Below, piece by piece: positions 4,480 through 62,439 of a stretch of 64,000 bases of DNA (its first letter is position 1; each line of letters starts with the position of its first letter). The translations under genes and the position numbers were made by a program. Source of the stretch: an uncultured Candidatus Saccharibacteria bacterium (GTDB lineage: Bacteria > Patescibacteriota > Minisyncoccia > Phycocordibacterales > JACOZG01); contig CAYUVV010000001.1 of assembly GCA_964448295.1 (NCBI GenBank), forward strand, positions 144,065 to 208,064. Direction: 5' to 3'. The notes beneath the pieces were generated by a model. That model had not been told where the DNA came from. It searched no databases and saw only the letters and a list, made by a program, of their open reading frames with translations.

Positions 4480-4492
4480 TACACTGCCACTA

Positions 4493-5737: not shown

Positions 5738-5758
5738 TAGTTTTATTTTCAATTTTTT

Positions 5759-6085: not shown

Positions 6086-6101
6086 TGGCAACCATTAGTG
6101 T

Positions 6102-8099
6102 TTGATGGCCAAATCGCTCACTCTCGGCAACGGTAAAATACTTGTTAATTTTGACGAATTTGGTCTGGTGCGTGATTTTTATTTTCCGCGGGTGGGGTTG
6201 GAGAACCACGTCGGCGGGCAGTTTGTTCATCGAGTGGGGGTGTGGGCCGATGGTCGTCTGTCGTATTTGAATGACGGCAGTTGGCGCATCGAGGTGGATA
6301 GTGAGCCAGACACTCTGGCTGGGCGCGTAACGGCCCTTAATGCCGCGCTCGAGGTCGGCCTTCATTTTAGCGACGTGGTCTATAACGAGAAGAATATTTT
6401 TGTACGGAAAGTTACTCTGACCAATCTGGCCAACCGTTCGCGGTCGTTGCGTTTGTTTTTTGGTCAACAATTCGAAATCGGTGAGTCCCGCACCGCTCAT
6501 ACGGCCTACTATGATCCGATCCACCGCGTGATCATCCACTACCGTAATCAACGCGCCTTCCTTGTTGGTGCCCAGCTGGAAGGCAAAACCTTTGATGACT
6601 ATAGCACTGGCGTTTTTGCAGCGGAGGGCAAAGAGGGAACGCATCGCGATGCAGAAGATGGCCTGCTCGCCAAAAATAATATTGAACACGGTCAGGCCGA
6701 TTCCGTCATTGGTCTAACCGGCGAGTACTCGGTTGAAGAAACAAAAATTGGTTATTATTGGCTGGCCGCGGCTGAATCGCCACGCGCCGCGATTGCTCTC
6801 CATAACTATGTTTTAGGCAAGGGCCCCGGGCACCTTATTCAAACCACACGCAATTATTGGAAGGCTTGGGTGACGCGCCGCAATTTTTCCTTTCACGGCT
6901 TAAGCGCGCCGCAGGTGACCCTGTTTAACAAATCTCTTTTATTGATTCGCGCTCATGCTGACGAGGGCGGGGGAATCATCGCCTCGGGAGATTCCAATTC
7001 TTTGCAATTAGGCAAAGACACATATGCTTATGTGTGGCCGCGGGACGCCGCCTTCTCGGCTCTGGCGTTGGCGGAAGCGGGCGATAGCCATATTGCCAAA
7101 TCTTTTTTCCAATTTTGTAACCGGGTGATCAACGAAGGTGGTTACTTGATGCACAAGTATAGCCCGGATGGTTCGCTTGGCAGTTCTTGGCATCCTTGGA
7201 TTCGCGCCGGTCGGGTGGAATTGCCGATTCAAGAAGACGAAACCGCTTTGGTGATTTACGCCCTTTGGCGTTATTACGAGTTGAGCAAAGATCTGGAGTT
7301 TGTCGAGGAGGTTTATAACTCTCTCATCAAACGTGCCGCTGATTTTATGGTTTTGTATCGCGACGCCGAAACTGGTCTGCCGCGACCGAGTTATGATTTG
7401 TGGGAAGAAAAGTGGGGGGTAAGCACGTTCACGACCGCGGCCGTTTACGGGGCGTTAACAGCCGCCGCTCGCTTTGCCCGCCTGTTGGGAAAATTGAAAA
7501 GTGAAGATATTTATCGTCGGACGGCGGGCGAGATCCGTTCCGCCCTGCTTGAGACGCTCTACGACGGGCGGCGTGGCTCATTTGTTCGGTTGCTCGAAAC
7601 CGATGGCCGCCATGACCCGCAAGCCGTTTTTTTTGATCAAACAATAGATGCCTCCGGCGCTTATGGTGTTTGGGCCTTTGGGGTGTTGCCAGCTGAGGAT
7701 GGTCGTTTACGTCGGGCGATGGAGGTTGTGTTCGAGAGGCTCTGGTGTCGCGATGGGGTTGGGGGTATTGCCCGTTATGAGGGTGATGTCTATTATCGCG
7801 CGAGCGCCAAAGGTCCCGGCAATCCGTGGTTCGTGCCTACCCTGTGGTTAGCGCAATACCAACTAGCTCAAGCGCGGACGGAAGCGGAACTTACCCCCGC
7901 CAAAAACATTCTCGATTGGGCGGTAAAATATGCCAGCCACTCCGGAGTGCTGTCCGAACAGGTGCATCACGACAGCGGGCAGGCTCTCTCGGTGGCGCCT
8001 TTGGTGTGGAGTCACGCCGAGTACGTTCGCACCGTAATCCAATATCTCGATCGGTTAGAAATTTTGGGAATTTGCGACGCTTGCAATCCCGTGAGCTAA
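6102..8099 (+). CDS. Glycoside hydrolase family 15 (glucoamylase / glucodextranase-like)
   Basis: 665 aa with N-terminal beta-sandwich and (alpha/alpha)6 catalytic domain signatures, including YVWPRDAAF. Confidence 0.8.
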   Translation: MMAKSLTLGNGKILVNFDEFGLVRDFYFPRVGLENHVGGQFVHRVGVWADGRLSYLNDGSWRIEVDSEPDTLAGRVTALNAALEVGLHFSDVVYNEKNIFVRKVTLTNLANRSRSLRLFFGQQFEIGESRTAHTAYYDPIHRVIIHYRNQRAFLVGAQLEGKTFDDYSTGVFAAEGKEGTHRDAEDGLLAKNNIEHGQADSVIGLTGEYSVEETKIGYYWLAAAESPRAAIALHNYVLGKGPGHLIQTTRNYWKAWVTRRNFSFHGLSAPQVTLFNKSLLLIRAHADEGGGIIASGDSNSLQLGKDTYAYVWPRDAAFSALALAEAGDSHIAKSFFQFCNRVINEGGYLMHKYSPDGSLGSSWHPWIRAGRVELPIQEDETALVIYALWRYYELSKDLEFVEEVYNSLIKRAADFMVLYRDAETGLPRPSYDLWEEKWGVSTFTTAAVYGALTAAARFARLLGKLKSEDIYRRTAGEIRSALLETLYDGRRGSFVRLLETDGRHDPQAVFFDQTIDASGAYGVWAFGVLPAEDGRLRRAMEVVFERLWCRDGVGGIARYEGDVYYRASAKGPGNPWFVPTLWLAQYQLAQARTEAELTPAKNILDWAVKYASHSGVLSEQVHHDSGQALSVAPLVWSHAEYVRTVIQYLDRLEILGICDACNPVS

Positions 8100-17780: not shown

Positions 17781-17865
17781 GCTCGGACGCGGCGGAATTC
17801 CTCCCACACCCCCCCCTTCCGCCGCGCCCTCGCTTGGACGGACGGAATTTTTGGCGGCGGCATTG
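17781..17865 (+). repeat. Structured ~85-bp repeat, copy 1 (20 bp after tRNA-Ala, about 80 bp upstream of the C-protein gene)
   Basis: GCTCGGACGCGGCGGAATTCC-TCCCACAC-C8-TTCCGCCGCG-CCCTCGCTTGGACGGACGGAATTTTTGGCGGCGG; 10-bp perfect inverted repeat CGCGGCGGAA/TTCCGCCGCG. Confidence 0.8.
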
Positions 17866-49356: not shown

Positions 49357-50055
49357 CTACTCTTTTAGCACAAAGGGATTGTAACTGATACCTCTGTCAT
49401 ACACATCAATTCCTTCTGCTCGTTTGAGTTTTTTTACAATCATGTATGTAACGGGCGTAAGAACCACTTCATACGCAACTTTTGCAAGATAGCCAGACAA
49501 TATAAGGGTAGTCAATCCGGAGAAAGGTATTGTTCCCGCGAATGCGATGATTCCAAAGATAACGCTATCCACTCCTTCACCAACAATTGTTGAGCCAATT
49601 GTCCTCATCCAAAGACGTCTTCCATTGCTCCAGATTTTCATTCGAGATAGCACATATGAGTTACTAAACTCTCCTACAAAGTAGGCAATAATTGATCCAA
49701 GAACGATTCGCGGTACGGTACCCAAAATAAGTTCGTAAGCCCCTTGATTCTGCCAAAAGACCGGGGACGGTAGAATTTGGACAAAGTAATAACAAAATGT
49801 CATGAGTACAAGAGCAGCAAAACCCGACCAGATTATTTTTCGGGAAGCCTTGTAGCCATACACTTCTGTCAGAATATCTCCAAAAATATAGCTTATTGGG
49901 AAAATGAAAATTGCTCCTGCAAACACAAACGGGCCAATCTGAACCAGTTTAACTGCGACCGTGTTCGAAATCATTAATACAGCAACAAAGAGAATTCCTA
50001 TGAAGAGAAAGTATTTGCTGTTTTTTGAAATATCGTGTGTTTGGTGGGATTCCAT
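49357..50055 (-). CDS. yhhQ: Queuosine-precursor transporter YhhQ/DUF165 (VUT family)
   Basis: FVFAGAIFIFPISYIFGDILTEVYGY motif; start trimmed to internal Met to remove overlap with the upstream MTase. Confidence 0.7.
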   Translation of the reverse strand: MESHQTHDISKNSKYFLFIGILFVAVLMISNTVAVKLVQIGPFVFAGAIFIFPISYIFGDILTEVYGYKASRKIIWSGFAALVLMTFCYYFVQILPSPVFWQNQGAYELILGTVPRIVLGSIIAYFVGEFSNSYVLSRMKIWSNGRRLWMRTIGSTIVGEGVDSVIFGIIAFAGTIPFSGLTTLILSGYLAKVAYEVVLTPVTYMIVKKLKRAEGIDVYDRGISYNPFVLKE

Positions 50056-50065
50056 GGTGATTAAA

Positions 50066-50764
50066 TTATAACACTTTAAGCTTGCTCCTGATAATCCGAT
50101 ACATTCTCCACTTGTAACCAATATCTTCAATTTCTATGTGCCTTTCTGGAACGTACCCATATTCTCCCAGCATTTCTTCGAACTCTGAAAAATCACTTTC
50201 TCCCTTAAAATTAACGTGGGTCATTATTATAATCCCCCCATCATTTAAATACTTACCAACCTCTTCGAAAAAAGTGTGATGAATTTTATATTCAGGATCA
50301 TAAAGAGCGGACTCCACTATTCCTTTAATCGGAAAATCTGTGATAGGAAGATTTGCAATAACGACATCAAACTTTTCTTCCCCTTTAAGACTGCTAAACA
50401 GGTCACTTTCAAAAACTGAGACCACGGCCTCTACACCATTGAGATGAATATTTTCTTTTGCACACAATACCGCTACGGGATTTATATCTAAAGCAATAAC
50501 ATTTTGAGCACCATCTTTTGCCGCCTGAATAGCTTGCACGCCCGTACCTGTCCCTATATCAAGAATCCGCTTCCCCTTAAGATTACCGAAAATCGTATGC
50601 AATTTCTCGGAAGTTCGTGAGAAATTACTTCGTGGAGGAAAGACATCCTTGCAAGTCTTTATTTTTAAACCCTCAATATCAATAATTTCGGATGCCTGGT
50701 TTTTAATTTCTTGTAGAAATTTTTTGGTTATATCGGGATTTACTTTAGCCATATAGATATTCAT
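50066..50764 (-). CDS. Class I SAM-dependent methyltransferase (small MTS domain, RsmC/PrmC-like) with degenerate motif IV
   Basis: ILDIGTGTGV motif I; motif IV reads ANLPI rather than NPPY/F. Confidence 0.65.
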   Translation of the reverse strand: MNIYMAKVNPDITKKFLQEIKNQASEIIDIEGLKIKTCKDVFPPRSNFSRTSEKLHTIFGNLKGKRILDIGTGTGVQAIQAAKDGAQNVIALDINPVAVLCAKENIHLNGVEAVVSVFESDLFSSLKGEEKFDVVIANLPITDFPIKGIVESALYDPEYKIHHTFFEEVGKYLNDGGIIIMTHVNFKGESDFSEFEEMLGEYGYVPERHIEIEDIGYKWRMYRIIRSKLKVL

Positions 50765-50909
50765 ATTTTACAATCTTTTCAACCTTTTTGATAGACTTTT
50801 GCAGTTTAGCTTCCTTCACCGAATTTGTGTAGTTGACTTCCCTCCGCTTCTGCTCTGTGTTGCGGTTGGGATCTGGACTTCGTAAGCGTTCGCGGTATGT
50901 TCGTGTCGT

Positions 50910-52208
50910 ATGGAAACAATGGCAATACCCCGCCGAAATACGGCGACTCCCGGCCTTCAAGAACAGGAGCCTATCCGCTATTGCCTCTACGCCCGCAAAT
51001 CGAGCGAAGCCGAAGAGAAACAAGCCTTGTCCATCGATTCTCAAATTAAGGAAATGCTGACCATTGCCCAGCGCGACGGTTTAAACATCATCGAGATGTA
51101 TCGTGAGTCGCACTCAGCCAAAGACTGCGGCCAACGGCCAGTTTTCAACAAATTGCTCATTGATATCCGCGAGGGCAAGTTTAACGGTATTCTCGTCTGG
51201 CATCCCGATCGGCTGAGCCGGAACGCCGGCGACCTTGGTACGGTTGTGGATCTGCTTGACCAGAAGAAATTAATCGAGATTCGCACTTACAGCCAGCGTT
51301 TTACCAACAACCCGAATGAGAAATTCCTGCTCATGATTCTCGGCTCTCAAGCCAAGTTGGAAAATGATAACAAGAGCGTCAATGTAAAGCGCGGCCTCAA
51401 GACCAAGTGCGAACTCGGGCTTTGGCCCTCGGTGGCGCCAACCGGATACCTGAACTCCAAGAACAAAGATCAGAAAGGCGTGGTGTTCGTGGATCCGGAT
51501 CGAGCGCCAATTATCAAAGAACTTTTCCGCAAAGTGGCTAATGAAGGCTGGAGCGGCCGAAAGATTTACCGATGGCTCAAGGAGATTAAATTTGTCACCC
51601 GCACCGGCAAGCCGCTCACCTTGAGCAATGTTTATGTGATTCTCAACAATCACTTCTACCACGGCTCGTTTGAGTATCCCAAACAGAGCGGTCGCTGGTT
51701 CCAAGGCAGGCATATGCCGCTAATCTCCAAAGACTTGTTCGATGAGGTCCAGAAACAGCTCCACCTGCAAATTAAGGCCCACAATCGTAACAAAGAATTC
51801 GCCTTCACTCGATTGCTTTTCTGCGGCGTCTGTGGCTCAGGCGTGACGGCGCAGGAAAAATTCAAGAGTTTGAAGGATGGCTCGATCGCCAAGTATATTT
51901 ACTACGGCTGTACCCGGGCCAAAAATATCAACTGCGAGAAAATTCTCATTGATCAGTTAACCAAAATCATTGACCAAATCGATCTCGATCGCTCGGGCAT
52001 CAAGAAAAAACTTGGAGCCGAGATCGAGCGGCATAAAAAATTTCACTCAGGGATTATGGGAAAAAGCGAAGAAGCCTATCGCGCGAAAGATGCCGATATC
52101 AGAAATTACGCGAAGTATCTGCTAATCGAAGGATCGATATTTGAGAAGCGGGATTTGCTGGGGTGTTTGAAGAGTAAGCTCTCTCTTAAGAATAAGATAA
52201 TCTACTAA
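50910..52208 (+). CDS. Large serine recombinase (resolvase N-domain + recombinase domain + Zn ribbon)
   Basis: YARKSS catalytic region, DRLSRN, C-terminal Cys cluster CGVCGSG...YYGC. Confidence 0.85.
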   Translation: METMAIPRRNTATPGLQEQEPIRYCLYARKSSEAEEKQALSIDSQIKEMLTIAQRDGLNIIEMYRESHSAKDCGQRPVFNKLLIDIREGKFNGILVWHPDRLSRNAGDLGTVVDLLDQKKLIEIRTYSQRFTNNPNEKFLLMILGSQAKLENDNKSVNVKRGLKTKCELGLWPSVAPTGYLNSKNKDQKGVVFVDPDRAPIIKELFRKVANEGWSGRKIYRWLKEIKFVTRTGKPLTLSNVYVILNNHFYHGSFEYPKQSGRWFQGRHMPLISKDLFDEVQKQLHLQIKAHNRNKEFAFTRLLFCGVCGSGVTAQEKFKSLKDGSIAKYIYYGCTRAKNINCEKILIDQLTKIIDQIDLDRSGIKKKLGAEIERHKKFHSGIMGKSEEAYRAKDADIRNYAKYLLIEGSIFEKRDLLGCLKSKLSLKNKIIY

Positions 52209-52963
52209 GATAGTAGCCCGGCCTGCTCTCGTGACATACCTTTTGCACCCTCATTTCTTATTTTCTTCCAGATTCTTTCAACTCCATCAATGTGCCCTTT
52301 TTCTCTTTCGCGATTGCGTTGTGCTTCTTCGATAACTTTTGACCATCTCAACATCATAAGGACTGCCCCTTCCCTAACTAAGTCAAAGAAGTCCTTAGGC
52401 CTAAGCATAATTGTTTTGTGTTCCCTTATGGCGAACTCAGCTTCCATCTTTTCCTTATTTTCGTCCGATAAGTCATTGGCTGCTAGCGCAATAAAAATAT
52501 CTTCCGTCGGCTCACCAAATCCAAAGAAGTGGACTAGGGCATTTCTAAATTTATATAGACGCTCACTACTAACTGCAGTAAAGAGACCTTTATAATATTG
52601 ATTCTCGGTATTTATACAGAATTCCTCATACCAAACCCTTGGTCTTTTATTGGTGGTACCCGTCTGATTTAAATAGCTAAACCAATAACTGGCTAATACA
52701 TCGATTAAACTGAAGGTCACGATCATTTGTATACGCTGGGGAATCGGAGTAATCTCTTTGTCATTTTTAAAGAAAACGGTGTTACATTCTTCAATTACAC
52801 TCATTAAGAAATCTACGACCTCCTTTTCTCTAGCTGTGTGCTGAGATATATATTGCTTCCTGTTATCATACATATAGAGGCTACAGTTAGGATCACCCGT
52901 CCCATAACAACGCTTATATTTCTTTCCGCTTCCACACGGGCATTTATCATTTCTTCCCGTCAT
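52205..52963 (-). CDS. SEC-C-motif protein with uncharacterised C-terminal domain
   Basis: N-terminal KCPCGSGKKYKRCYG; remaining 220 aa unknown. Confidence 0.5.
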   Translation of the reverse strand: MTGRNDKCPCGSGKKYKRCYGTGDPNCSLYMYDNRKQYISQHTAREKEVVDFLMSVIEECNTVFFKNDKEITPIPQRIQMIVTFSLIDVLASYWFSYLNQTGTTNKRPRVWYEEFCINTENQYYKGLFTAVSSERLYKFRNALVHFFGFGEPTEDIFIALAANDLSDENKEKMEAEFAIREHKTIMLRPKDFFDLVREGAVLMMLRWSKVIEEAQRNREREKGHIDGVERIWKKIRNEGAKGMSREQAGLLS

Positions 52964-53233
52964 AAAATTTCTCAGATAATTTTGACCCCTCTTGGTCCTT
53001 CGATACTTTTCTAGACTGCTGTCCCTCCTGAATGAAATCCGAACTTTTTACCAAACGAACCCTGACGAATGAAGCCGCCCCGCCGCCGCTCGCTGACGCT
53101 CGCCACCGAGCAAAACACTCTTTACATTTTCTGATTTGCGCGCGCCCCCGAAAAATTTTTCCAATTAAGGAAAAGAGTATTTTGCTCGGCTCTGCTCTGA
53201 ACGAGCAGGCGGCGGGGCTGGCCTCTATTTTTT

Positions 53234-53316
53234 GCTCGGGCGCGGCGGAATTCCCCCCACACCCTCCTTCCGCCGTGTTCTTGCGGGAACGGACGGAATT
53301 TTTGGCGGCGGTTATT
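53234..53316 (+). repeat. Structured ~85-bp repeat, copy 3 (overlaps stop of helicase gene)
   Basis: GCTCGGGCGCGGCGGAATTCCCCCCACACCCTCCTTCCGCCGTG...GGACGGAATTTTTGGCGGCGG. Confidence 0.8.
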
Positions 53317-56300
53317 TTGATTTTAGCATCTCCTTTATCTCCTGAACACACTGCTCCAAATCATTTTGGAGTTGATACACCCAAAATCGTTTGACTTGCC
53401 ATCCATGCATGATGAGATGCTGATCTCGTTTCAAATCCGAGAGCAAGCGACCTCCGTCAATGTCGCGATGCCACATCTCGCCGTCAATCTCAATATCAAT
53501 CGGGATTTCAGAATCAAGAACGGCAAGGTCAAGACGATATTGGTACAACGGATATTGCGAGATGGTTCTGATACCTTCCCGCGCGAGGGCGTCATACAAA
53601 ACTTCCTCCCACGGCGACTCAAATTTTCCTCCGCTTTTATTTTTATTTTCCGGTTCCAACTCCTCGACATACTTCACGAAATCCGAAAGATGCGAGATGC
53701 CGGATTGAGCGCAAGCAACCCTGTCGCCGACAATATGCAATTCCGCCCTCGCACGGGTAATCGCGACATTGAATAGATTTACCGTATTTCCCAAAAATCC
53801 TAACGAGCGTTGCTGGATTTTACGCGATACAACCGGAGAGAAAATCATAATGTCGCGTTGGTCGCCTTGATATTTATGCGCGGTATCAACTGTAAAATCC
53901 AGTTTTCGCAACTGCGCCGCGTCTATCTTTTGCTCTACCAAATCTCTGATTTTGTTCGCTTGCTCTCGGAAGGGCGTAACAACGCCGAGCGATACGGAGT
54001 AGTCGTCGCCGTGGGCGAAAATTCTTTTGATAATTTCTTCAATCAACGCAACAATCGCTTTCGCCTCGTCCAAATTGTATGCGCTTCCAGCAGATGGCCG
54101 AATAACCTCGCCGACGACATCGTGCCAAATGAGCGCGTCTGGATGTCCGGCGCCGCGCAACCTACGATAATCCGTCCAAACGCTCAATTTCCCGCCATAA
54201 AACTTTTTGTTGGAGAAACCGATAATTTCCGCGCGGCTCCTGTAGTGTTCGAGTAAGTGAACGAATTTTGCACCCGTTCCTACAACGCTTCGCGCAAGCT
54301 CAAAAAGAGAGTTTATGCTGTAAAGAAAGCGTTGGTCGTCGGTCGAGGTTAGGCCAATCTGCCGTTGCAACTGTTGATCGTCCGCGCGATGCAAAAGAGA
54401 GATGTGCGTGAGCTGATTTGGGTCGCCCACAATCACGGCTCGCTTCGCGCGATAAAGTAGCGGAATTGCGGACGCGATGTCGCATTGAGACGCTTCGTCA
54501 ATAATCACGACATCAACGGCTCCTGCGCTCAACGGGAGTGCGTGACGGACGGATAGATTTGTAACGGCCATCGCCGGAAACGCCCTTACTACGCTTTTGA
54601 ACATTCGCTTGCGCTCATTTCTCAACTCCTCCGCAAGTTCGCCTCCTGTTACATCACCCTCTAATCGGCGCACGATACTCACATAGTCCGCAATATCGCG
54701 CCGTTCCTTAGGGCCAAGCGACTTGAGACGACGCTTCATCAACGCATCAACATATATGACGCTAATATCTATCGCGCGTTCTTTGCTTTTTGTGATTCGC
54801 TCCCGCAAAACTTCTACGCGCGCTTCGTTCTCATTCTCTCGCACAATTCCTAGAAGTTCAGATTGATTATCAATCCACTTTTTCAAGGCGCGGCAAATTG
54901 TCAAAAGCTCTCGGCAGTTATGAACGGAATTGAGCGAGATATTGATGCCTTCGACTGGCGCAAGCAGAAGTAATGATTTTGCTGTTTCCAAAACTCGTTT
55001 TTCCAGCGTAGAACCGAAAAGCGCAAGAACGCGCGAAATAAAACCGGGTCCCTCGTCAATTTCCTTTACTAAGCGACCCAACGAAACAAGAGTGTTATAA
55101 AATTCCTGTTTCCCTTCGATTTTTTGATACGAGTTGAGGTTGCGAGAAATTGACGAAGGCAATTCCGCTCTGACAGATTCAAGCGCGGCATCAAGGCGAC
55201 TTATGCGATTCCTGCGATCAAGAATGCGGAATAGTGATTGTTGCGCCTCTTTTTCTTCCGAACGCACTACCTCAAGCTCTTTTTTGTATTCGCCAATTTC
55301 TCGCTCTAGCGATTGGCTGTTGTAGCTTGAGGCGCGTTCAATCGCGGACAAAAGTGCTTCCGCAAATTCAATCTCGCGTTCCTTCTGCCCATATTTGAGA
55401 ATGACCGGCTCGGATTGAAGTCGCAATAATCTTTCAATGACGACATCAACCGCTTTGTGGTTTTTACTTCCGAATAAAACGCTTTCGTTATGAAGTAGCG
55501 CGTTGGCAATAATATTAAGAACGATTTGCGACTTTCCGGTTCCGGGCGGTCCGGTAATGACACTAACCGTATTGTTGAATGCACTTTTGACCGCGCCTCT
55601 TTGTTCATCGTTCAGTCCGGTTATTTCCAGCAATCCATCGCCGTTGTCCTCTTTGACTTCTGCGTTTCTATCAAGAATTACGCGCCATACATCATTCGGA
55701 GCGGTGGTATCTCGTAATTCGCTCAATTCTTGCTCTAGCCCACCAGTGTATTTTGAATCCGCGCTCCGAAAAATAACGCCAAGAGGCAAAACACCGCCCT
55801 CCGCTTTTAATTCTGTTGTTTTGCCGCCTAGAATATCTTTTGAGAAAGGAACCTCTTGCGGCAAAAGCTCGGCGAACGCACCCAAAATAGTTTTGAGATT
55901 TTGCCCTCTGCTTTTCTCATCGTCCCATGATTCCAAAACCGCTTCGGCGATTTGCTTTCTTTCCTCAACGCTCGTCAGTAAACTTTTATCTGTGAGAAAA
56001 GCAGAGTTGATTCTCGGTCTATCAGATTGCAAAACGAAAGCGTGTCCGGTTTCTGTTTGAACGAGGTCTATACCGAAAATCAGGATGGGCTGGATTATTT
56101 GACCCGACCATCCTCGTCGCGATTGTTCAATATGTTTAATGTGGCAAGGAAAGCCATAGAAATACGAAAGTGGACTGCGGCTCCATCGGGGACCGCTGAT
56201 GAACGCTTGGATTTTTTCATTTTGACCCTCAAATTCCAGTTTTTCCTTGCCGGACGCAATCCACTCTTTTTCCATTGCAGGCACCTGCAAAAACTCCACT

Positions 56301-56500
56301 CCATCTTTTGACGAGTAGAGTGTGATTTCTCCGGAGTTCTCAACGGAAATGCATGAGCCGTAATATTTGAGGAGTTTTTGCCAGCGTGAGGATGTAGGGT
56401 CGGTGTGAACCACCGGAGTCTTGTTTTCTGTTTTTCGGGCGGTTGCCGTTCGCCTATATCCGCCTCGACCTCTGTATTTGTTGCGATAGTAGGTTGCCAT
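53312..56500 (-). CDS. SF1 (Upf1/DNA2-like) helicase fused to C-terminal DUF559/Vsr-like endonuclease domain; N-terminal about 300-aa DUF4011-like region
   Basis: Walker A ITGPPGTGKSQ, Walker B VVIIDEASQ, motif VI region TAHKYQGDQRD, C-terminal YRLDLAV...IEIDGEMWH...D...K nuclease-like core. Confidence 0.8.
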   Translation of the reverse strand: MATYYRNKYRGRGGYRRTATARKTENKTPVVHTDPTSSRWQKLLKYYGSCISVENSGEITLYSSKDGVEFLQVPAMEKEWIASGKEKLEFEGQNEKIQAFISGPRWSRSPLSYFYGFPCHIKHIEQSRRGWSGQIIQPILIFGIDLVQTETGHAFVLQSDRPRINSAFLTDKSLLTSVEERKQIAEAVLESWDDEKSRGQNLKTILGAFAELLPQEVPFSKDILGGKTTELKAEGGVLPLGVIFRSADSKYTGGLEQELSELRDTTAPNDVWRVILDRNAEVKEDNGDGLLEITGLNDEQRGAVKSAFNNTVSVITGPPGTGKSQIVLNIIANALLHNESVLFGSKNHKAVDVVIERLLRLQSEPVILKYGQKEREIEFAEALLSAIERASSYNSQSLEREIGEYKKELEVVRSEEKEAQQSLFRILDRRNRISRLDAALESVRAELPSSISRNLNSYQKIEGKQEFYNTLVSLGRLVKEIDEGPGFISRVLALFGSTLEKRVLETAKSLLLLAPVEGINISLNSVHNCRELLTICRALKKWIDNQSELLGIVRENENEARVEVLRERITKSKERAIDISVIYVDALMKRRLKSLGPKERRDIADYVSIVRRLEGDVTGGELAEELRNERKRMFKSVVRAFPAMAVTNLSVRHALPLSAGAVDVVIIDEASQCDIASAIPLLYRAKRAVIVGDPNQLTHISLLHRADDQQLQRQIGLTSTDDQRFLYSINSLFELARSVVGTGAKFVHLLEHYRSRAEIIGFSNKKFYGGKLSVWTDYRRLRGAGHPDALIWHDVVGEVIRPSAGSAYNLDEAKAIVALIEEIIKRIFAHGDDYSVSLGVVTPFREQANKIRDLVEQKIDAAQLRKLDFTVDTAHKYQGDQRDIMIFSPVVSRKIQQRSLGFLGNTVNLFNVAITRARAELHIVGDRVACAQSGISHLSDFVKYVEELEPENKNKSGGKFESPWEEVLYDALAREGIRTISQYPLYQYRLDLAVLDSEIPIDIEIDGEMWHRDIDGGRLLSDLKRDQHLIMHGWQVKRFWVYQLQNDLEQCVQEIKEMLKSK

Positions 56501-56502
56501 AA

Positions 56503-56709
56503 TTATGAAAGAAGATTGCGCGGATCAACGCCGAGGGCATCAGCCAATCTTTCGAGATTTTTAACTGTAGGATTTCTAATTCCGCGCTCTATTCCGCTAA
56601 TGTAGCTCCGGTGAACGGCAAGTTTCTTGGCGATGTCCCCTTGGGACATACCTTTTTGCAAGCGGATTTTTCGTAGTTGCTCTCCAAGTTTTTTAGTAAG
56701 TGGCTTCAT
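56503..56709 (-). CDS. XRE-family HTH regulator (immediately upstream of, and co-directional with, the helicase)
   Basis: HTH_XRE; start set to the internal ATG (MKPLTKKLGEQL). The longer track ORF uses a non-ATG start that runs into the repeat. Confidence 0.7.
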   Translation of the reverse strand: MKPLTKKLGEQLRKIRLQKGMSQGDIAKKLAVHRSYISGIERGIRNPTVKNLERLADALGVDPRNLLS

Positions 56710-56797
56710 AGTGTCTTGTTGATATGTTAGCACTTGTTGCACTATTGGTCTATAGAGTATTATAATACTCGTATGGTAATCGCCGCTCCCGCAAGAA

Positions 56798-56870
56798 CAC
56801 GGCGGAATTCCCCCCACACCCCCCCCCCTTCCGCCGCGCCCTCGCTTGGGCTGGCGAATTTTTTGGCGGT
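56798..56870 (+). repeat. Structured ~85-bp repeat, copy 4 (about 85 bp upstream of the HTH gene start)
   Basis: CACGGCGGAATTCCCCCCACAC-C10-TTCCGCCGCGCCCTCGCTTGGGCTGGCGAATTTTTTGGCGG; 5' end diverged. Confidence 0.75.
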
Positions 56871-57589
56871 TAACTAATCCTTACTATCTCCGCCAGCAAA
56901 ACATCCATATCATTTGAAAAATTTATCTGCGTTTTGTTTGGCAGAGATTCCTTATTCCTAATTTTTGTATGTAGGTATGAGTCAGCAATTTTTCGAGACG
57001 AGTTCTCCAAGTGAGACATTGAATCTTTAAAACTCTTTGTGCCGTAATTGTTCGCGACTTCCGTAAAGGTATTTAGATTAAAAATTGGCGGAACATGATC
57101 AAGTATGGCTCGCACCAATAAAATAACCGAAATATAGTTGCCCACAGAGTAGGCGTGATCCAACTCTGAAAGCATTTGAATCAACCTTGAAAAGTCGAGC
57201 CGTCCTTTTTTCTTTTTCAAAGCTTGAAAACGTTTTTTGTCTATGAATCCTCCATCGACGGTAACGAGCTTAATTTTACTATCCTTGAAGCACTGGTTGA
57301 GTTGAAAGTCTTTCTCTACCTCCGCCAATTTATCGCTCTTAAGCCGCCATTCATCCTTTGCCACTTTGGAAGTTCGCCGATCTTTCGCTATCGCTGAGCG
57401 TAGTTTTGTAATATTCGGACTTCCAAGGCCAGCGCTTTTAAAATCGGATATAACTTGTTTTAATGTTGCTCCGGTGTCTTTTTTGACTGCATAAAAATAC
57501 AAAAAGCAGACCGCTCTATCGGCAATTTTTGTAGCTCGTCGGCTCATGCAATGAGCAAAGGATTCAGTGATCGCGCTATTTTTCTTCAT
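56870..57589 (-). CDS. Hypothetical protein, paralog group member 3 (shared about 50-aa domain at N-terminus)
   Basis: 239 aa; ADRAVCFLYFYAVKKDTGATLKQVISDFKSAGLGSPNITKLRSAI aligns with segments of the two upstream proteins. Confidence 0.5.
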   Translation of the reverse strand: MKKNSAITESFAHCMSRRATKIADRAVCFLYFYAVKKDTGATLKQVISDFKSAGLGSPNITKLRSAIAKDRRTSKVAKDEWRLKSDKLAEVEKDFQLNQCFKDSKIKLVTVDGGFIDKKRFQALKKKKGRLDFSRLIQMLSELDHAYSVGNYISVILLVRAILDHVPPIFNLNTFTEVANNYGTKSFKDSMSHLENSSRKIADSYLHTKIRNKESLPNKTQINFSNDMDVLLAEIVRIS

Positions 57590-58067
57590 CTATTTTCAAA
57601 AGAGATTCAAAATATTTTGCTCCCTTTCTATTCAATTTATAAACTACCGCCTTACCTTTGACGCGAGTTGAATCTCCCTCCAGATATTTCTGTAGCGATT
57701 CTGTAATCGCTTTAGACACATTTGGCGTTTTAACTCCAACCCGTAGCTCAGAGGTAATCCTTGCAACATCACCGGTAGTAAGCCCTTGCCGGGGGAAGTA
57801 TTTATAGTAAATGTAGAATGGCAATAAGACTCTGCCGGGGATTGAAACTTTATCAAGTATTTTTTCCTCAATTTTGTCCGCATCTTCGCAATTCTTAATC
57901 TTGTTCACGATGGCTAAAATATGATCATTCGAATCATTGCTAATTTTAGCTGGCTTCTTGACTAAAGACTGTTTCTGTTTTGTCGGAGTATTAAACAACG
58001 CCGCAAGGCATTCGTCCGCTAAAGACTTTATCTCATTGAGCTTTGATACAAGTTTGTCGTTCGTCAT
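57576..58067 (-). CDS. Hypothetical protein, paralog group member 2
   Basis: 163 aa; coiled-coil N-terminus; shared domain PGRVLLPFYIYYKYFPRQGLTTGDVARITSELRVGVKTPNVSKAI...GKAVVYKLNRKG; Lys-rich. Confidence 0.5.
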   Translation of the reverse strand: MTNDKLVSKLNEIKSLADECLAALFNTPTKQKQSLVKKPAKISNDSNDHILAIVNKIKNCEDADKIEEKILDKVSIPGRVLLPFYIYYKYFPRQGLTTGDVARITSELRVGVKTPNVSKAITESLQKYLEGDSTRVKGKAVVYKLNRKGAKYFESLLKIDEEK

Positions 58068-58069
58068 AT

Positions 58070-58597
58070 TTATTTCGTCGTTTTATTCTTCTTGCGGCGA
58101 GTAGTACTTTTGTATTTGCTTTTCTTGACCATATCCTCGGGAAATCCACCCTGCAAAACTTTCATACCGGTATTAGTAATGTAAAAACTGCCTTTCTTTA
58201 CCGGATCCGGTGCTATCCAGCCACTGCTTATAGCCCACTTAAAATCGCGTGTCAGGTTTGCCGGAATCAGTTCTCCAGCGTCACGAAAAAGACTTTTAAT
58301 TTCGCCCTGCTGAAAGGAGTCTTTATTGTGAAATTCTTTAAGGAACCCCGCCAATGTAAGAATCTTGTCGGGATTGCGCTTAGGTGCGTGCCTGTTTAGA
58401 TACTCTGCCGCAGATTCCCTTTGTGAACCAGTGCGACGAATAGATACTGGCGGCGCTGTCTTCACGACGCCATGTTCTTCGCCCCCAGCCGAAAGACAAA
58501 GAGCCATTATTTGTCCTGCAGTGTTTTCGTCAATCAATTTCTCATAAGATAGCCCAGCACCCTTGATGGTTATCTTTATTTTTGCTTGCTTATCCAT
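58070..58597 (-). CDS. Hypothetical protein, paralog group member 1
   Basis: 175 aa; shared domain PDKILTLAGFLKEFHNKDSFQQGEIKSLFRDAGELIPANLTRDFKWAI...KGSFYITNTGMK; basic tail KKSKYKSTTRRKKNKTTK. Confidence 0.5.
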   Translation of the reverse strand: MDKQAKIKITIKGAGLSYEKLIDENTAGQIMALCLSAGGEEHGVVKTAPPVSIRRTGSQRESAAEYLNRHAPKRNPDKILTLAGFLKEFHNKDSFQQGEIKSLFRDAGELIPANLTRDFKWAISSGWIAPDPVKKGSFYITNTGMKVLQGGFPEDMVKKSKYKSTTRRKKNKTTK

Positions 58598-58599
58598 AA

Positions 58600-58680
58600 G
58601 TTAAATGGTTATATGGTTAATAATAATTTGTCAACTTGTCTACAAGTTAGCAAAAGTGGCCACAGTTGTCAAGATCAACC
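58600..58680 (-). promoter_or_regulatory. Candidate promoter/operator for the paralog trio
   Basis: Minus-strand TTGACA hexamers at two positions, weak -10s (TATAAC), and an imperfect palindrome TGTCAACTTGTCTACAAGTTAGCA. Confidence 0.35.
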
Positions 58681-58681
58681 G

Positions 58682-58706
58682 AAAAAGCGGCCGATAGCCG
58701 CTTTTT
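58682..58706. terminator. Bidirectional rho-independent terminator separating DUF262-HNH gene from the trio
   Basis: AAAAAGCGGC-cgat-AGCCGCTTTTT. Confidence 0.6.
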
Positions 58707-58721
58707 CAGAGAATAAAAGTT

Positions 58722-59831
58722 TTAAATCCCCGACTTTGTTCGATTATGTTCCCTGCATAGCATTTGGCAATTTTCTGCGGTTGTTTTACCGCCCTCGTGC
58801 CAAGGGGTAATATGGTCGGCTTCCATTTCCTCAATATCCCACTTTTGCTTTTCTTTCTTCTCTTTTTTGCACCACGGACAAATGCCATTTTGCCGCTCGT
58901 ACGCTTCGCGCTTCATTTTGTCGGTAAAAGCGCGGATTGAAAGATATTTTTCTTGTCTTGTTAAAACATACGGATAGATGCCGGATTTTTTGGTAACATC
59001 CTCGTCCTGCATCAATTCTTTGATTTCAGCTTCCAATTTCGCAGGATTTAATTTTTTGTCTTTGAATTTGTTGTAAAGTTCGCCCCAGTTCACATGCGCC
59101 ATCTCCTTGCGGTAATTAGGAAAAGTTTTGCGCACCCAAGCAATCACATCTTGAAAGTACTCCCAAAGCTCATCAGCATTTTTGTCGTGCTGATGGCGGG
59201 CCATATAGTCCTCAATTTTACCCTCGTTTATCCACGAAAGCGCAGTTTCGAGATATTCCTGACGGATCGGCGAACCGCTCAAAAGCGCACCGCCGTCATT
59301 GGCGAGCAGATACGCCGCGCAGTTTGATTTGCTGAATTTGAGTTTTGCGTCAGAAAGCCACGGGCCGGTATAAACCGCGTTGCGAATTTCTTGATCGGTC
59401 AATTTTTCTCCGGCAATGTTAATGATCCTGAACCAATCCAGCCGCTCTTTGTCTGTCCCTTCGCAGAAATAAATCATGAGTTCATAATCCAAAATCTGGT
59501 TTTGTTCTTCTTTGGTGAGATTGTGAAAATATCTTTCGTTCAGCGAGAAATCGCCGGTTACATACTGCCCGATGCTGATGGTGCGCTGTTGGCCGTCCAG
59601 CACTTCATAGCCGCCGTCTTCGCGCACCATCCAATACATCACATTGAGCGGAAAGTTGTTTTTGATGGTTTCAATTACGGCATTGCGCTGTTTTTCTTTA
59701 TAAACGAATTCACGCTGATATTTGGGACGGATATCCAGCTTGCCGTCATATGCCACAACGCCCTCCTCGGCGCTGTCCTTGTAGCCAGCAATCACTTTAC
59801 GGATCGGAATTTTGTGGAGTTCAATTTTCAT
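58722..59831 (-). CDS. DUF262 (ParB-like) + HNH nuclease (GmrSD/SspE-like architecture), candidate restriction component
   Basis: DGQQRTISIGQYV DUF262 motif; C-terminal CPWC...ADHITPWHEGGKTTAENCQMLCREHN HNH. Confidence 0.8.
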   Translation of the reverse strand: MKIELHKIPIRKVIAGYKDSAEEGVVAYDGKLDIRPKYQREFVYKEKQRNAVIETIKNNFPLNVMYWMVREDGGYEVLDGQQRTISIGQYVTGDFSLNERYFHNLTKEEQNQILDYELMIYFCEGTDKERLDWFRIINIAGEKLTDQEIRNAVYTGPWLSDAKLKFSKSNCAAYLLANDGGALLSGSPIRQEYLETALSWINEGKIEDYMARHQHDKNADELWEYFQDVIAWVRKTFPNYRKEMAHVNWGELYNKFKDKKLNPAKLEAEIKELMQDEDVTKKSGIYPYVLTRQEKYLSIRAFTDKMKREAYERQNGICPWCKKEKKEKQKWDIEEMEADHITPWHEGGKTTAENCQMLCREHNRTKSGI

Positions 59832-59832
59832 A

Positions 59833-60906
59833 TTATTTCTTTACTTTCTTATTTCTAATTACAACACGAACATAAGTTGGCTTACCATTTATTGCCCCTT
59901 CCTTATCCTTGATAAGGCCATGCTCTTTGTATGGAACATTGCTATTGCGTCTAATATCATTGGCACTTAATATCTCAAACTTGTCGGGATTGTATTTAGC
60001 AAGAAAAGTAATCGGCACTCCCATTGCACCGTCATAATCCATTGGAATATCAGAATATCTTGAAACCTCTATAGCATCATAATTGTCATATTTTGGGTAT
60101 TCTTTTGGGTTGTATTTTTTATATAAGGTGAGCTCCTCGTGTCTCTTTGTTGTATCTAAATTGGTGTACCAAAGTATTCTCCCCATACTGAAGTATTTAA
60201 TGCCATTTACAATTTTCTTTCTTGATTCTGTGGGTATGTCATAATCCATCGGCACCTGAAACCATTTTGTGCCACCATTGTCGTAGCCCAGCCATAATTT
60301 ATTGCTTTTTATAAGTTTAAAAATCTCTTTGTAGGTAGAGGCATTTTGATCGCCAAGAATAAGAAATTTTTTATTGTATTCCACAAGTTGGGCAACATAC
60401 TCGCGAAAAAGCGAAAACGGCGGATTCGTTACTACGATATCAGCCTGTTTCAGCAGTTCTATACACTCGTTGCTCCTAAAATCTCCATTGCCTTTAAGCG
60501 GTGTGGCGGCATTTTTATTGTATTTTAATAAATGTTTTACATCTTCAAGATCAATCGCTCCGTTTTTGTCAGAATCCGGCACTTCGTTAATTTCAATCTT
60601 CATTGGCTCTTTGCCTTTTGGCTTCAAGCCCGCTATTTCAAAGAGCGGCAGTTGATTGCCGACTATTGGAGACGGGCTGTAACTTGTGGTGATAAGTTTC
60701 TTTAATCCGAGTGCGTTGAAGTTGCCCGCGAAATATTTGAAAAAATTGCTCTCAAACGGGTCATCGCAATTGCAATACACAATCTTGCCGCGAAATTGAT
60801 TTTTGTAGTGTTTGAGCTCTTTCTCAATATCAACAAGCTGGGTGTAAAACTCGTCTGTTTTAGCGCTTCTCGCTGAATGTAAGTTTTTGTTTAATGATTT
60901 AGTCAT
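59833..60906 (-). CDS. DNA N6-adenine methyltransferase, gamma-class-like (NPPF)
   Basis: N-terminal DEFYTQ (motif X-like), VVTNPPF motif IV; 2 bp from the DUF262-HNH gene and 3 bp from the C-protein gene. Confidence 0.65.
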   Translation of the reverse strand: MTKSLNKNLHSARSAKTDEFYTQLVDIEKELKHYKNQFRGKIVYCNCDDPFESNFFKYFAGNFNALGLKKLITTSYSPSPIVGNQLPLFEIAGLKPKGKEPMKIEINEVPDSDKNGAIDLEDVKHLLKYNKNAATPLKGNGDFRSNECIELLKQADIVVTNPPFSLFREYVAQLVEYNKKFLILGDQNASTYKEIFKLIKSNKLWLGYDNGGTKWFQVPMDYDIPTESRKKIVNGIKYFSMGRILWYTNLDTTKRHEELTLYKKYNPKEYPKYDNYDAIEVSRYSDIPMDYDGAMGVPITFLAKYNPDKFEILSANDIRRNSNVPYKEHGLIKDKEGAINGKPTYVRVVIRNKKVKK

Positions 60907-60908
60907 AA

Positions 60909-61121
60909 TTACTTCTGTATTAAATCATCAACACCAACGCCGAGCGCATCCGCGATTTTGCGGAGCGTCTCAACGCGGGGGTCAGGTGTTGAACCGGTTT
61001 CTATCTTTGCAATGGTGTGTAAAGTAACACCGGCCAATTTGGACAGCTTATCTTGTGAAATACCGAGCTTGTCTCGATATTTCTTTATGTTCTTTGCTAT
61101 GGTGGATAATTCTTTTGCCAT
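60909..61121 (-). CDS. XRE-family HTH, probable controller (C) protein
   Basis: 70 aa; shares ISQDKLSKLA...LHT(V)..I...D....E(T)...IA.AL.V.VDDL with the 17947 HTH. Palindrome AGTAAAGTTTTACT 4 nt upstream of ATG. Confidence 0.8.
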   Translation of the reverse strand: MAKELSTIAKNIKKYRDKLGISQDKLSKLAGVTLHTIAKIETGSTPDPRVETLRKIADALGVGVDDLIQK

Positions 61122-61352
61122 ACCAGTAAAACTTTACTATAATGTGTTTAGCGTGGTATTATTATTGTATGAAAAATAATCCTTTTCGTCAATCTGTTTT
61201 AGGGAGTTCCCTAACCTTGCCCGCGCACTGGGCTGGTGGGGCAATGGCAAGAAAAAATAACTCCGCCAAAGCGAGACCAGCCCCGCCAATGGCGGGGCTG
61301 GGCGAGCGAACCCTCTCGTCTGAAAATTCGCGGTTTGTTTTGTCAGAAGCTG

Positions 61353-61423
61353 CTGCCAGACTTGGATTCGAACCAAGATTCACGGCTCCAAAGGCCGCTG
61401 TCCTACCATTAGACGATCTGGCA
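61353..61423 (-). tRNA. tRNA-Gln (anticodon TTG), no encoded CCA
   Basis: Hand-folded: acceptor TGCCAGA/TCTGGCA (U1-A72 as in bacterial tRNA-Gln), D-stem GTCT/GGAC, anticodon stem GCGGC/GCCGT with loop CTTTGGA, T-arm CTTGG-TTCGAAT-CCAAG. Confidence 0.8.
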
Positions 61424-61503
61424 AAACCACTAAGCAATCTTAGCAGAAACTCTCGCTATTGCAAAAAATTTCGAAGTGTAGCAAGATTACAGTTTGAAAC
61501 CAA

Positions 61504-62439
61504 ATGATTCTTGATTGGCAAAAATTACGTCCATTTTTCGGTTTGATCGTTATCGGAGCGAGCTTGGTAGTTTTGATAATTTGGAATTTTTACTTGACGG
61601 CCCAGATTGCCAACTTAACCAATGATTTTGCCTCATCTACTGCCGCCCTGACTTTGCGGCATCAGGAAAATGACGAAGATATTTCCGAGCTAAAAGAACG
61701 TTTAGGCGAAACCTCGAAATCTCTCTCTCAAACGGCTGCCGATTTGAAAAACGCGCAGGAGGATCTTGACTCGGCTCTCTCCCGCGCGGCCGAAGTAGAG
61801 GAACAAGTGGGAGAGATCACTGGCACTGTTTCTACTCTGGAAAAATTGAGCCAGACCGATCCCGAGCTTTTGCAAAAATACTCTAAGGTATTTTTCTTGA
61901 ATGAGCACTATGCTCCGCCGCGCCTAGTGGAAATTCCGTCCGAATATCGTTACAGCGCCAACAAGGTGGAAACTATTCATTACCGCGTTTGGCCATTTTT
62001 ACGTCGCTTGCTTGACCGAGCCAAACGGGACGGTGTGGAAATTTATGTGAAATCCGCTTACCGCTCATTTGAGGAACAACGTTCGACCAAATCATCTTTC
62101 AGCGTAACTTATGGAGCGGGCACGGCAAATACTTTTTCCGCTGATCAAGGTTACTCCGAGCATCAACTTGGCACGACGGTTGATTTCATTACCAAAGGAT
62201 TAAACGGTCAGCTTGATGGTTTTGAGAAAACGAATGCTTACCAATGGTTGATCGCCAACGCTCATAATTATGGCTTCACCCTTTCTTATCCGCCGAATAA
62301 CCAATACTATATTTTTGAACCTTGGCATTGGCGTTTTGTCGGCGAGGATTTGGCCGAAGACTTGCACGATGACGGCAAGTACTTTTACGATCTCGACCAA
62401 CGAGATATTGACAAATACCTAGTCAAAATTTTCGATTAG
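61504..62439 (+). CDS. M15-family D-Ala-D-Ala carboxypeptidase (VanY-like) with N-terminal TM and coiled coil
   Basis: VKSAYRSFEEQ, SEHQLGTTVDF, EPWHWRF metal-binding motifs. Confidence 0.75.
   Translation: MILDWQKLRPFFGLIVIGASLVVLIIWNFYLTAQIANLTNDFASSTAALTLRHQENDEDISELKERLGETSKSLSQTAADLKNAQEDLDSALSRAAEVEEQVGEITGTVSTLEKLSQTDPELLQKYSKVFFLNEHYAPPRLVEIPSEYRYSANKVETIHYRVWPFLRRLLDRAKRDGVEIYVKSAYRSFEEQRSTKSSFSVTYGAGTANTFSADQGYSEHQLGTTVDFITKGLNGQLDGFEKTNAYQWLIANAHNYGFTLSYPPNNQYYIFEPWHWRFVGEDLAEDLHDDGKYFYDLDQRDIDKYLVKIFD

Follow-up and report, generated by a model that had tools for sequence, protein, structure and literature searches.

The three genes P175, P163 and P239 lie tightly packed on one strand of contig CAYUVV010000001.1 (positions 144,065 to 208,064) of an uncultured Candidatus Saccharibacteria bacterium; the whole stretch of 64,000 nucleotides that was analysed is referred to here as the window. 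We hold, with moderate confidence, that the trio is a portable, autoregulated toxin–antitoxin (TA) or abortive-infection (Abi) cassette of three components, with a HEPN protein as the effector. A preceding sequence-only reading of the same DNA had pictured three equal nucleic-acid binders and had overlooked the C-terminal 120 residues of P239, which are a probable HEPN nuclease with an E...Rx4H motif. With the HEPN domain found, three nucleic-acid binders therefore become one effector plus partners. The suggestion of that reading that the trio serves as an abortive or anti-phage module, or as an accessory of restriction–modification (R-M), is plausible, while its picture of an equivalent paralogous trio was not sustained.

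P239 carries a predicted HEPN-type effector domain

AlphaFold2 models of P239 and P163 were built with 72–73 homologs and were confident, with a mean predicted local distance difference test value of 90.4 for P239 and 82.3 for P163. In the P239 model a disordered linker joins the N-terminal domain to an all-helical C-terminal domain (residues 118–238), in which the all-alpha core with two helical hairpins that typifies the HEPN fold was recognised. This domain matched HEPN proteins of several independent families, namely Csm6 (6tug_A, 125 residues aligned, score 8.4), AF0298, described as 'HEPN domain containing protein' (2hsb_A, 8.3), Csx1-Crn2 (8y7f_B, 7.9), TT1696 (1ufb_A, 7.8), the HEPN toxin SO_3166 (5yep_B, 7.8), YutE (1ylm_B, 7.7) and AbiA (8oz7_A, 7.6). 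In a published survey of HEPN proteins the signature is given as Rx4-6H closing core helix 3, accompanied by an acidic residue within helix 2 (PMC3710099). P239 fits this signature, as R160-x4-H165 ends the helix of residues 152–165 and E142 is located in the preceding helix (134–148). The Rx4H motif was invariant in 72 close homologs. Across 148 diverse members of the family conservation was 99% for E142, R160, D164 and H165, 100% for H207, E214, Q221, D229, E234 and R237, and 96–99% for R199, D203 and R211. From the model, we consider it quite likely that the P239 C-domain has a HEPN fold, and it is predicted to be a ribonuclease (RNase) active as a dimer.

Curated HEPN models from Pfam, NCBIfam and PADLOC gave no match to P239 at E <= 0.1, and a Pfam search of 147 representatives of the HEPN family gave one Csx1_HEPN match (E 0.012). 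Foldseek comparison of P239 with the PDB returned winged-helix matches only, with no HEPN protein and no E value below 0.19; having recovered the winged-helix domain only, Foldseek was dropped as independent support for the HEPN assignment.

The Foldseek result would be in keeping with the trio being a non-enzymatic DNA-binding or regulatory set, similar to C proteins, which controls the R-M or other island genes and in which the P239 C-domain binds a ligand or mediates oligomerisation. Some HEPN-fold domains are indeed non-catalytic, the best matches of P163 and of the P239 N-domain are repressors, and the palindrome in the cassette promoter is conserved. We nevertheless regard a purely regulatory set as improbable, given that ∼17 polar residues of the C-domain, the E...Rx4H residues among them, are 97–100% conserved in the 148 diverse members, which is beyond the need of a scaffold, and that the domain is joined to many unrelated N-terminal modules, including PIN and zinc ribbons, which is the pattern of an effector. 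Furthermore, the palindrome is found in the window at the cassette's own promoter only, and more than half of the loci have the cassette without R-M genes.

The HEPN-type domain defines a large modular family

An exhaustive profile search for the HEPN family yielded 1,860 clusters at 50% identity (E <= 0.001), 1,163 of which matched at E <= 1e-30. The members were 176–458 aa in length and mostly matched over the C-domain only. When the N-terminal regions of the best 147 representatives were compared with the profiles used, 128 matched none of them, 18 were of the P239 type and one was P175-like. Sporadic fusions of the HEPN C-domain to DUF2321, DUF2513, PIN, zinc ribbons and an HNH-associated repeat were detected, and in P0114, P0119 and P0120 the same C-domain follows unrelated N-termini. 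On these sequences the family appears to be a highly conserved effector-like domain with swappable N-terminal modules and, as the C-domain is conserved while the N-termini vary, it conforms to the pattern of Abi-type HEPN effectors. It had been guessed from the sizes of neighbouring genes that the wider family is commonly embedded in type I R-M operons; this was refuted, as one such operon only was found.

Relatives were identified on 10 of 2.9 million viral contigs, against 221 confirmed matches in reference genomes. This distribution bears on the idea that the trio is an anti-defence or anti-restriction module of a mobile element, whose proteins would bind DNA or host defence proteins and so aid establishment. 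The position of the cassette on mobile islands beside R-M genes, and the existence of a few viral relatives, would be in keeping with such a module. It is nonetheless highly improbable, since viral relatives are so few, copies are common in chromosomal, non-mobile settings and the conserved HEPN-type active site is typical of toxins of hosts and elements and not of known anti-restriction proteins.

A separate observation concerns three Bacteroidota loci (L030, L043 and L047), where members of a partner family of ∼250–266 aa are located 5' of HEPN genes that have other N-terminal regions. Their junctions range from a 6-nt gap to a 14-nt overlap, and a single DUF5343 match (E 1.4e-33), obtained when neighbouring genes were scanned, may come from this partner family. 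The sequences suggest further partner–effector pairings beyond the P163 type.

The cassette recurs with a constant core and an exchangeable first gene

Re-reading of the open reading frames (ORFs) and junctions gave the trio the positions, sizes, strand and tight junctions that had been described previously, P175 and P163 being separated by 2 nt while P163 and P239 overlap by 14 nt (Table 1). Loci from other genomes were retrieved by looking up exact proteins and by scanning genomes, and their ORFs were searched with hidden Markov models of the three families. The gene order and the junctions of the cassette recurred in unrelated neighbourhoods in several phyla, the hosts being Patescibacteria, Verrucomicrobiota, Nitrospirota, Gammaproteobacteria and Margulisiibacteriota. 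The earlier proposal that the trio is a self-contained unit is borne out by this recurrence of the same cassette across phyla amid unrelated genes.

At 16 distinct loci a P163 homolog overlapped, by 4–35 nt, the start of a HEPN gene with a P239-type N-domain. The exceptions were L010, L011, L024 and L028, which have divergent N-domains and other small proteins at this position, and L022, which is on a truncated contig. The first gene of the cassette was variable: it was P175 in ∼10 loci and a 113-aa family in L015, L016, L018 and L092, while the small families F4–F7, singly or in sets of two or three, came first in L006, L009, L021 and L023–L025, and L014 had no first gene. All the partners are laid out alike: a helix at the N-terminus is followed by a low-complexity linker and then by a C-terminal segment whose pattern is winged-helix-like. 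P175 was related to F6 (hhalign probability 95%, E 4.6e-8) and to F7 (probability 83%, E 8.9e-6). P163 and P239 thus make up the invariable core and P175 can be exchanged for other first genes, which is at variance with three equivalent genes.

Two genomes with more than one cassette were found. L005, from a 2.67-Mb genome, has two tandem cassettes just after smpB (4217–7741), of which the upstream one is rearranged and comprises a P175-like gene, a 53-aa P163 fragment and a P175–HEPN fusion. The fusion (L005:5000–5890, 296 aa) contains a complete P175-like module (E 1e-39) and a HEPN domain (E 4e-46), and its P175-like module shares 63% identity with the stand-alone P175-like gene beside it. 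These sequences point to recent duplication and domain shuffling inside the cassette system. A partial P175-like segment fused to a HEPN domain was also present in P0328. As P175 is naturally fused to the HEPN domain, it is functionally tied to the effector. The second case is OZ257143.1, which carries two complete P175–P163–P239 cassettes (L019 and L020) more than 1 Mb apart, with P239 proteins 62–64% identical to that of the window.

None of the three proteins had a match in Pfam, NCBIfam, PADLOC or PHROG, in agreement with the initial impression that they belong to no named family. PADLOC-DB v2 system models gave no match to P175 or P239 and a chance-level Cas8a match only to P163 (E 0.0023), and PDB sequence-profile searches with all three family profiles yielded nothing usable. 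In P175 a low-complexity linker joins a small module at the N-terminus to a conserved C-terminal one (RNPDKIL ... LFRDAGE..PAN..RDF), after which the protein ends in a Lys/Arg-rich tail; a Pfam domain was detected in none of its 46 homologs. A Lys/Arg-rich tail had been attributed to all three proteins and was found in P175 only, as P163 ends ...KIDEEK and P239 ends ...EIVRIS.

P163 and the P239 N-domain resemble each other in fold and not in sequence

The P163 model has a long N-terminal helix (residues 3–25), a disordered linker (28–44) and a helical bundle that includes a winged-helix core (76–145), with a C-terminal helix last. Both P163 and the P239 N-domain contain the H-H-H-beta-beta core of the winged helix-turn-helix (wHTH) in a form matching known structures, and for both the best matches were the repressors MarR, PadR, ArsR and HrcA. 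The two models are of the same winged-helix subtype and have the same top PDB matches, and their resemblance is therefore real at the fold level. Of the three proteins for which a winged-helix fold was once proposed, the two that the structural result covers, P163 and P239 (in its N-terminal half), accordingly have it in their models; P175 is a candidate wHTH protein, to judge by its sequence pattern and by the place of its module in the L005 fusion.

A ∼50-aa segment had been thought to be shared by all three proteins as paralogs. Pairwise BLASTP among P175, P163 and P239 gave E values of 0.22–4.8, and hhalign comparison of family profiles, made from alignments of 29–30 homologs per family, gave E 0.13–0.45 with a probability of <1%. 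With enriched profiles (36 profile pairs, in which negative controls against the HEPN domain reached E 0.05) the best result was E 0.008 for P163 against the P239 N-domain, at a probability of 5% over 71 columns, followed by E 0.025 for P175 against the same domain. BLAST within loci gave E 0.008–0.08 in several orthologous pairs. The weak alignments always fell in the register proposed originally, but repeated alignments of this kind are not independent because the pairs are orthologous. The shared segment was therefore not significant in pairwise, profile or enriched-profile comparison and no sequence statistic supports three paralogous proteins; sequence-level paralogy of the trio was rejected, save for the recent duplication and fusion in L005.

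These results make it very doubtful that the genes are three duplication paralogs, each with one ∼50-aa nucleic-acid-binding domain, which act as equivalent subunits with no enzymatic effector. The fold subtype and top matches shared by P163 and the P239 N-domain, the constant register of the weak alignments and the ability of a P175 module to occupy the N-terminal position of a HEPN protein in L005 all speak for common descent. Yet nothing was significant once the 36 profile pairs and the HEPN controls are allowed for, and the orthologous pairs are not independent observations. The genes are also not equivalent, the P163–P239 pair being constant and P175 exchangeable, and P239 has an extra, much more conserved domain of enzymatic appearance.

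The cassette has its own promoter, palindrome and flanking hairpins

The 5' boundary of the cassette is marked by the hairpin terminator of the upstream DUF262-HNH gene (Table 1), the arms of which (58681–58691 and 58697–58707) are 100% complementary. Since an A-run precedes the hairpin and a T-run follows it, it could act in both directions; the bidirectional terminator reported 3' of the DUF262-HNH gene was recovered in this form, with a 14-bp stem. L012 has a similar hairpin at the equivalent site despite a different upstream gene.

The arrangement TTGACA-17-TAAnnT of the cassette promoter is kept 5' of the first gene in L012, L013, L001, L004 and L020. The promoter was missed by a consensus scan because its -10 element fits 3/6 consensus positions only. 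Two TTGACA hexamers had been pointed out in this region, of which one is the -35 element and the other is the right arm of the palindrome and not a second -35. The palindrome itself is real and longer than first described (13+2+13). The TGTnnACAA core is unchanged in six cassettes with P239 proteins that are 62–94% identical, and the palindrome is a candidate operator at which a dimeric wHTH protein could repress its own operon. The 64-kb window contains one copy, and palindrome-mediated cross-regulation of the R-M genes was rejected as there is no second copy there. Separately, L019 and L020, both on OZ257143.1, a 1.87-Mb chromosome of a gammaproteobacterial metagenome-assembled genome, share the TTGTATACAA version of the palindrome.

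No classical terminator was found at the 3' end of the cassette. The hairpin element directly 3' of the P239 stop codon is present in three copies in the window (17790–17811, 53243–53264 and 56800–56821; chance expectation 0), which follow closely on the 3' ends of tRNA-Ala, the helicase-nuclease gene and P239, respectively. The element resembles a genome-specific terminator or repetitive extragenic palindromic (REP)-like element, and its copy at the cassette is the probable 3' boundary of the cassette transcript, where it may act as a terminator.

A neighbouring XRE ORF touches on this element. As listed from a GTG at 56817 (56503–56817, 104 aa) it would traverse the hairpin, but its HTH (helix-turn-helix) domain starts at residue 44 and an ATG at ∼56709 (MKPLTKK...) would give a 68-aa protein. 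The 68-aa version, which stops 2 nt short of the helicase-nuclease gene, is more probably the real gene; with this start, the XRE and helicase-nuclease genes would form a pair that is a separate unit.

Table 1. Positions of the cassette genes, predicted domains and flanking elements in the window
Feature	Position	Strand	Description
P175	58070-58597	minus	175 aa; first gene of cassette
P163	57576-58067	minus	163 aa; middle gene
P239	56870-57589	minus	239 aa; last gene
P239 N-terminal winged-helix domain	57290-57565	minus	residues 9-100; H-H-H-H-beta-beta-H
P239 C-terminal HEPN-fold domain	56876-57238	minus	residues 118-238; all-helical; predicted RNase
Rx4H motif codons, R160-A-I-L-D-H165	57095-57112	minus	end of helix 152-165
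Hairpin terminator of upstream DUF262-HNH gene	58679-58709	minus	14 pairs, 7 G-C, loop 3, T-rich tail
Cassette promoter	58644-58672	minus	-35 TTGACA 58667-58672, 17-nt spacer, -10 TAACTT 58644-58649; read from sequence
Imperfect palindrome	58627-58654		28 bp; 13-nt arms, 2-nt spacer, 85% complementary; overlaps -10 and +1
Repeated hairpin element	56796-56866		∼70 nt; stem GCGGCGGAA / TTCCGCCG, C/G-rich loop, then GAATTTTTTGGCGG; directly 3' of P239 stop

The cassette is located on an island and is repeatedly adjacent to restriction–modification genes

In the window the cassette is part of a stretch (50910–61423) between a serine recombinase gene (50910–52208, plus strand) and tRNA-Gln (61352–61423), which looks like an integrative defence island. 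On the 5' side of the cassette are an HTH protein, an EcoRI-like methyltransferase (MTase; E 4.6e-141) and a DUF262-HNH endonuclease that matches PADLOC REase_II (E 6.6e-131), which agrees with the R-M context noted beforehand, and the arrangement HTH–MTase–endonuclease–trio was present in two other samples. On the 3' side are the XRE regulator and a 1,062-aa superfamily 1 helicase with a DUF559/MTES_1575-type nuclease domain, and the island also encodes a 252-aa SEC-C-motif protein. The helicase-nuclease gave partial matches to MkoC, ProA and Hhe models.

The association with R-M genes extends beyond the window, as the gene directly beside the cassette was an R-M component in 9 of ∼21 distinct P239-type loci, a raw count. 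The adjacent systems are of type I, IIP and IIG-like. EcoRI-like MTase and DUF262-HNH genes adjoin the cassette in the window and have counterparts in L018 at 51% and 39% identity, respectively, together with a 57%-identical serine recombinase, and L028 has an adjacent EcoRI-like MTase (60% identity). The adjacent gene is a 1,145-aa ResIII–Eco57I fusion in L012, a type I HsdR in L015 (with a KAP nucleoside triphosphatase (NTPase) downstream), an N6_N4 MTase with an MvaI/BcnI endonuclease in L016 and a divergently transcribed N6_N4 MTase in L013 and in L014. In L006–8 MTases are upstream and a serine recombinase, FtsK and a type I system are downstream. Other loci adjoin pyruvate-dehydrogenase genes, smpB, type IV secretion system (T4SS) genes, small TA pairs or unremarkable genes, and more than half of the loci have the cassette with no R-M genes.

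Three genes near these cassettes are recorded in their own right. A 480-aa fusion of a LexA DNA-binding domain, an S24 peptidase and an N6_N4 methyltransferase is directly 5' of the cassette in L013 (3400–4839, minus strand), an unusual architecture that could be SOS-responsive. The KAP-family P-loop NTPase of L015 (6807–10067, 1,087 aa) is directly 3' of the cassette, and an SduA_C-domain gene (L006, 12036–13139) is inside the type I R-M operon downstream in L006–8; both of these are defence-type genes.

The same parts could form an addiction TA system, which would stabilise the integrative element or the R-M genes by post-segregational killing and have no direct anti-phage role. The tRNA-Gln and serine recombinase that bound the island favour this possibility, as do the related cassettes that adjoin a serine recombinase and FtsK, T4SS genes or small TA pairs, and the overlapping upstream partner gene and operator-like palindrome are classic type II TA traits. 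We regard addiction as unlikely, however, as many copies are located amid chromosomal housekeeping genes with no obvious mobile element near, and recurrent docking at R-M systems of different types fits the logic of a defence island at least equally.

A proposed mode of action

Two characteristics of TA modules were found in the cassette, namely a small partner gene upstream of the putative toxin gene and overlapping it (by 14 nt in the window, and at 16 distinct loci overall), and a palindromic operator-like element in the module's own promoter, the core of which is present in six diverged cassettes. Observed directly are the gene order, conservation and co-occurrence, the folds of the models, the motifs, the conserved palindrome and the proximity of R-M genes; for the preferred TA or abortive-infection reading we infer from these RNase activity, toxicity, neutralisation, operator binding and a trigger. 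P239 would be the effector, its C-domain being a predicted metal-independent RNase that is dimeric when active. P163, its obligate and translationally coupled partner, would bind P239, probably via the co-varying N-terminal module, and would silence the nuclease, repress the operon or both. P175 may be an exchangeable regulator, adaptor or sensor, like the separate regulator of three-component TA systems. The 28-bp palindrome over the -10 element is the predicted binding site of one of the winged-helix proteins, and binding there would lead to autorepression of the operon. A trigger would then free the HEPN domain, cellular RNA would be cut and growth would stop; the trigger might be phage infection, loss of the element or failure of the adjacent R-M system. 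As the C-domain is constant and the N-terminal module varies together with the partner set, it is suggested that the partners act through this module. A more specific version, in which the cassette is a plug-in abortive backup for R-M whose combinatorial small winged-helix partners and variable N-terminal module sense R-M failure or subversion, or foreign DNA directly, and release the HEPN nuclease, is a tentative proposal to which we give rather little weight.

Several points count against the TA or abortive-infection reading, the first being that the number of R-M neighbours given above is raw. Tightly linked neighbours in the wider HEPN family are heterogeneous and often housekeeping genes. 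H165 and H207 are both candidates for the canonical catalytic histidine, and the many invariant polar residues could signify a chemistry other than that of a simple HEPN RNase. A lax Pfam scan of 29 P175 family members gave no HTH match. The assignment of the neutraliser and regulator roles to P163 and P175 is a guess, and P239 could itself be the autoregulator because it has its own winged-helix domain.

Comparison with known systems

Both the HEPN toxin whose neutraliser is encoded upstream and the R-M-linked HEPN gene are established concepts (PMC3710099). The cassette resembles HEPN-based TA and Abi systems (HEPN-MNT SO_3166/SO_3165, AbiV, AbiJ, AbiD/F and RnlA/LsoA) in its HEPN-fold effector with Rx4H and an acidic residue in the preceding helix, in the small putative neutralising partner just upstream and in its location on defence or mobile islands, and it resembles AbiJ-type proteins in the combination of a conserved effector domain with variable N-terminal modules (PMC3710099). 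It differs in having no MNT nucleotidyltransferase, no RNA antitoxin repeats and no match in Pfam, NCBIfam or PADLOC, in its one to four stand-alone winged-helix-type partners and in a second invariant His/Arg/Glu/Gln/Asp cluster of the P239 C-domain outside the canonical signature. A search of P163, P175 and the neighbouring genes for a nucleotidyltransferase domain, as in HEPN-MNT, found none.

In the three-component TA systems omega-epsilon-zeta and PaaR-PaaA-ParE the operon encodes a regulator, an antitoxin and a toxin in that order; its three genes abut closely or overlap, and its promoter contains a palindromic operator. The cassette is similar in operon order, junctions and palindrome, but its families are unrelated, its HEPN-type toxin has a DNA-binding-type domain of its own and its first gene is exchangeable, sometimes absent and sometimes multiplied.

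The HEPN nuclease of the type IX retron Kva2 is enveloped by a separate winged-helix protein, which holds the active site shut until there is a phage trigger (bioRxiv 10.64898/2026.07.14.738597). The pairing of a HEPN protein with a separate winged-helix protein is alike and offers, by analogy, a mechanism by which P163 or P175 could silence P239. The Kva2 HEPN protein does not have the canonical Rx4-6H motif, which P239 has, and the Kva2 winged-helix protein has two extra alpha/beta HEPN-binding domains that were not seen in P163. No reverse transcriptase domain was found among the island ORFs, no RNA family but tRNA-Gln reached the Rfam gathering score in positions 50000–62000, and a search for antitoxin-type RNA repeats gave two short tandem repeats only (2.1 and 2.6 copies), unlike an antitoxin array. 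The identity of the cassette as a retron or type III TA system was rejected on these three results. The comparison with Kva2 is an analogy only because there is no reverse transcriptase, retron RNA or antitoxin-type RNA repeat.

The Csm6 and Csx1 proteins (CARF-HTH-HEPN) differ from the cassette, which has no CARF sensor domain, CRISPR context or detectable sequence similarity to them. For R-M-linked HEPN genes it has been put forward that an RNase is released when restriction fails (PMC3710099). The cassette is similar to these and to PrrC-type suicide nucleases in that a HEPN-type gene is docked at several R-M types; it differs in having its own promoter and putative terminator, in being outside the R-M operon and in being without R-M genes at more than half of its loci, and the ABC (ATP-binding cassette) ATPase of PrrC and RloC has no counterpart in it.

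A literature search for a three-gene system of wHTH and HEPN proteins returned analogies only (type IX retron, AbiV and CoCoNuTs). New, in comparison with these systems, are a large HEPN-type family that has no Pfam, NCBIfam or PADLOC model, its one to four stand-alone winged-helix-type partners, which come from a limited set of exchangeable families, an effector that bears a winged-helix module at its N-terminus and docking beside R-M regardless of type. If the TA or abortive-infection reading is true, the HEPN-type family, with at least 1,860 clusters, would be a widespread, unannotated toxin or immunity component in many bacterial phyla, and a defence or addiction module would be added to the Patescibacteria (candidate phyla radiation), whose small genomes have few recognised systems. 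The mix-and-match partners and N-terminal modules would be a natural system for the coupling of sensors to a conserved RNase, and the repeated docking of the cassette at R-M genes of different types would make the idea of a 'second line of defence' for R-M-linked HEPN proteins testable with a compact three-gene unit. If the backup reading is true, the family would be a major unrecognised class of modular sensor–effector immunity proteins, especially relevant in Patescibacteria.

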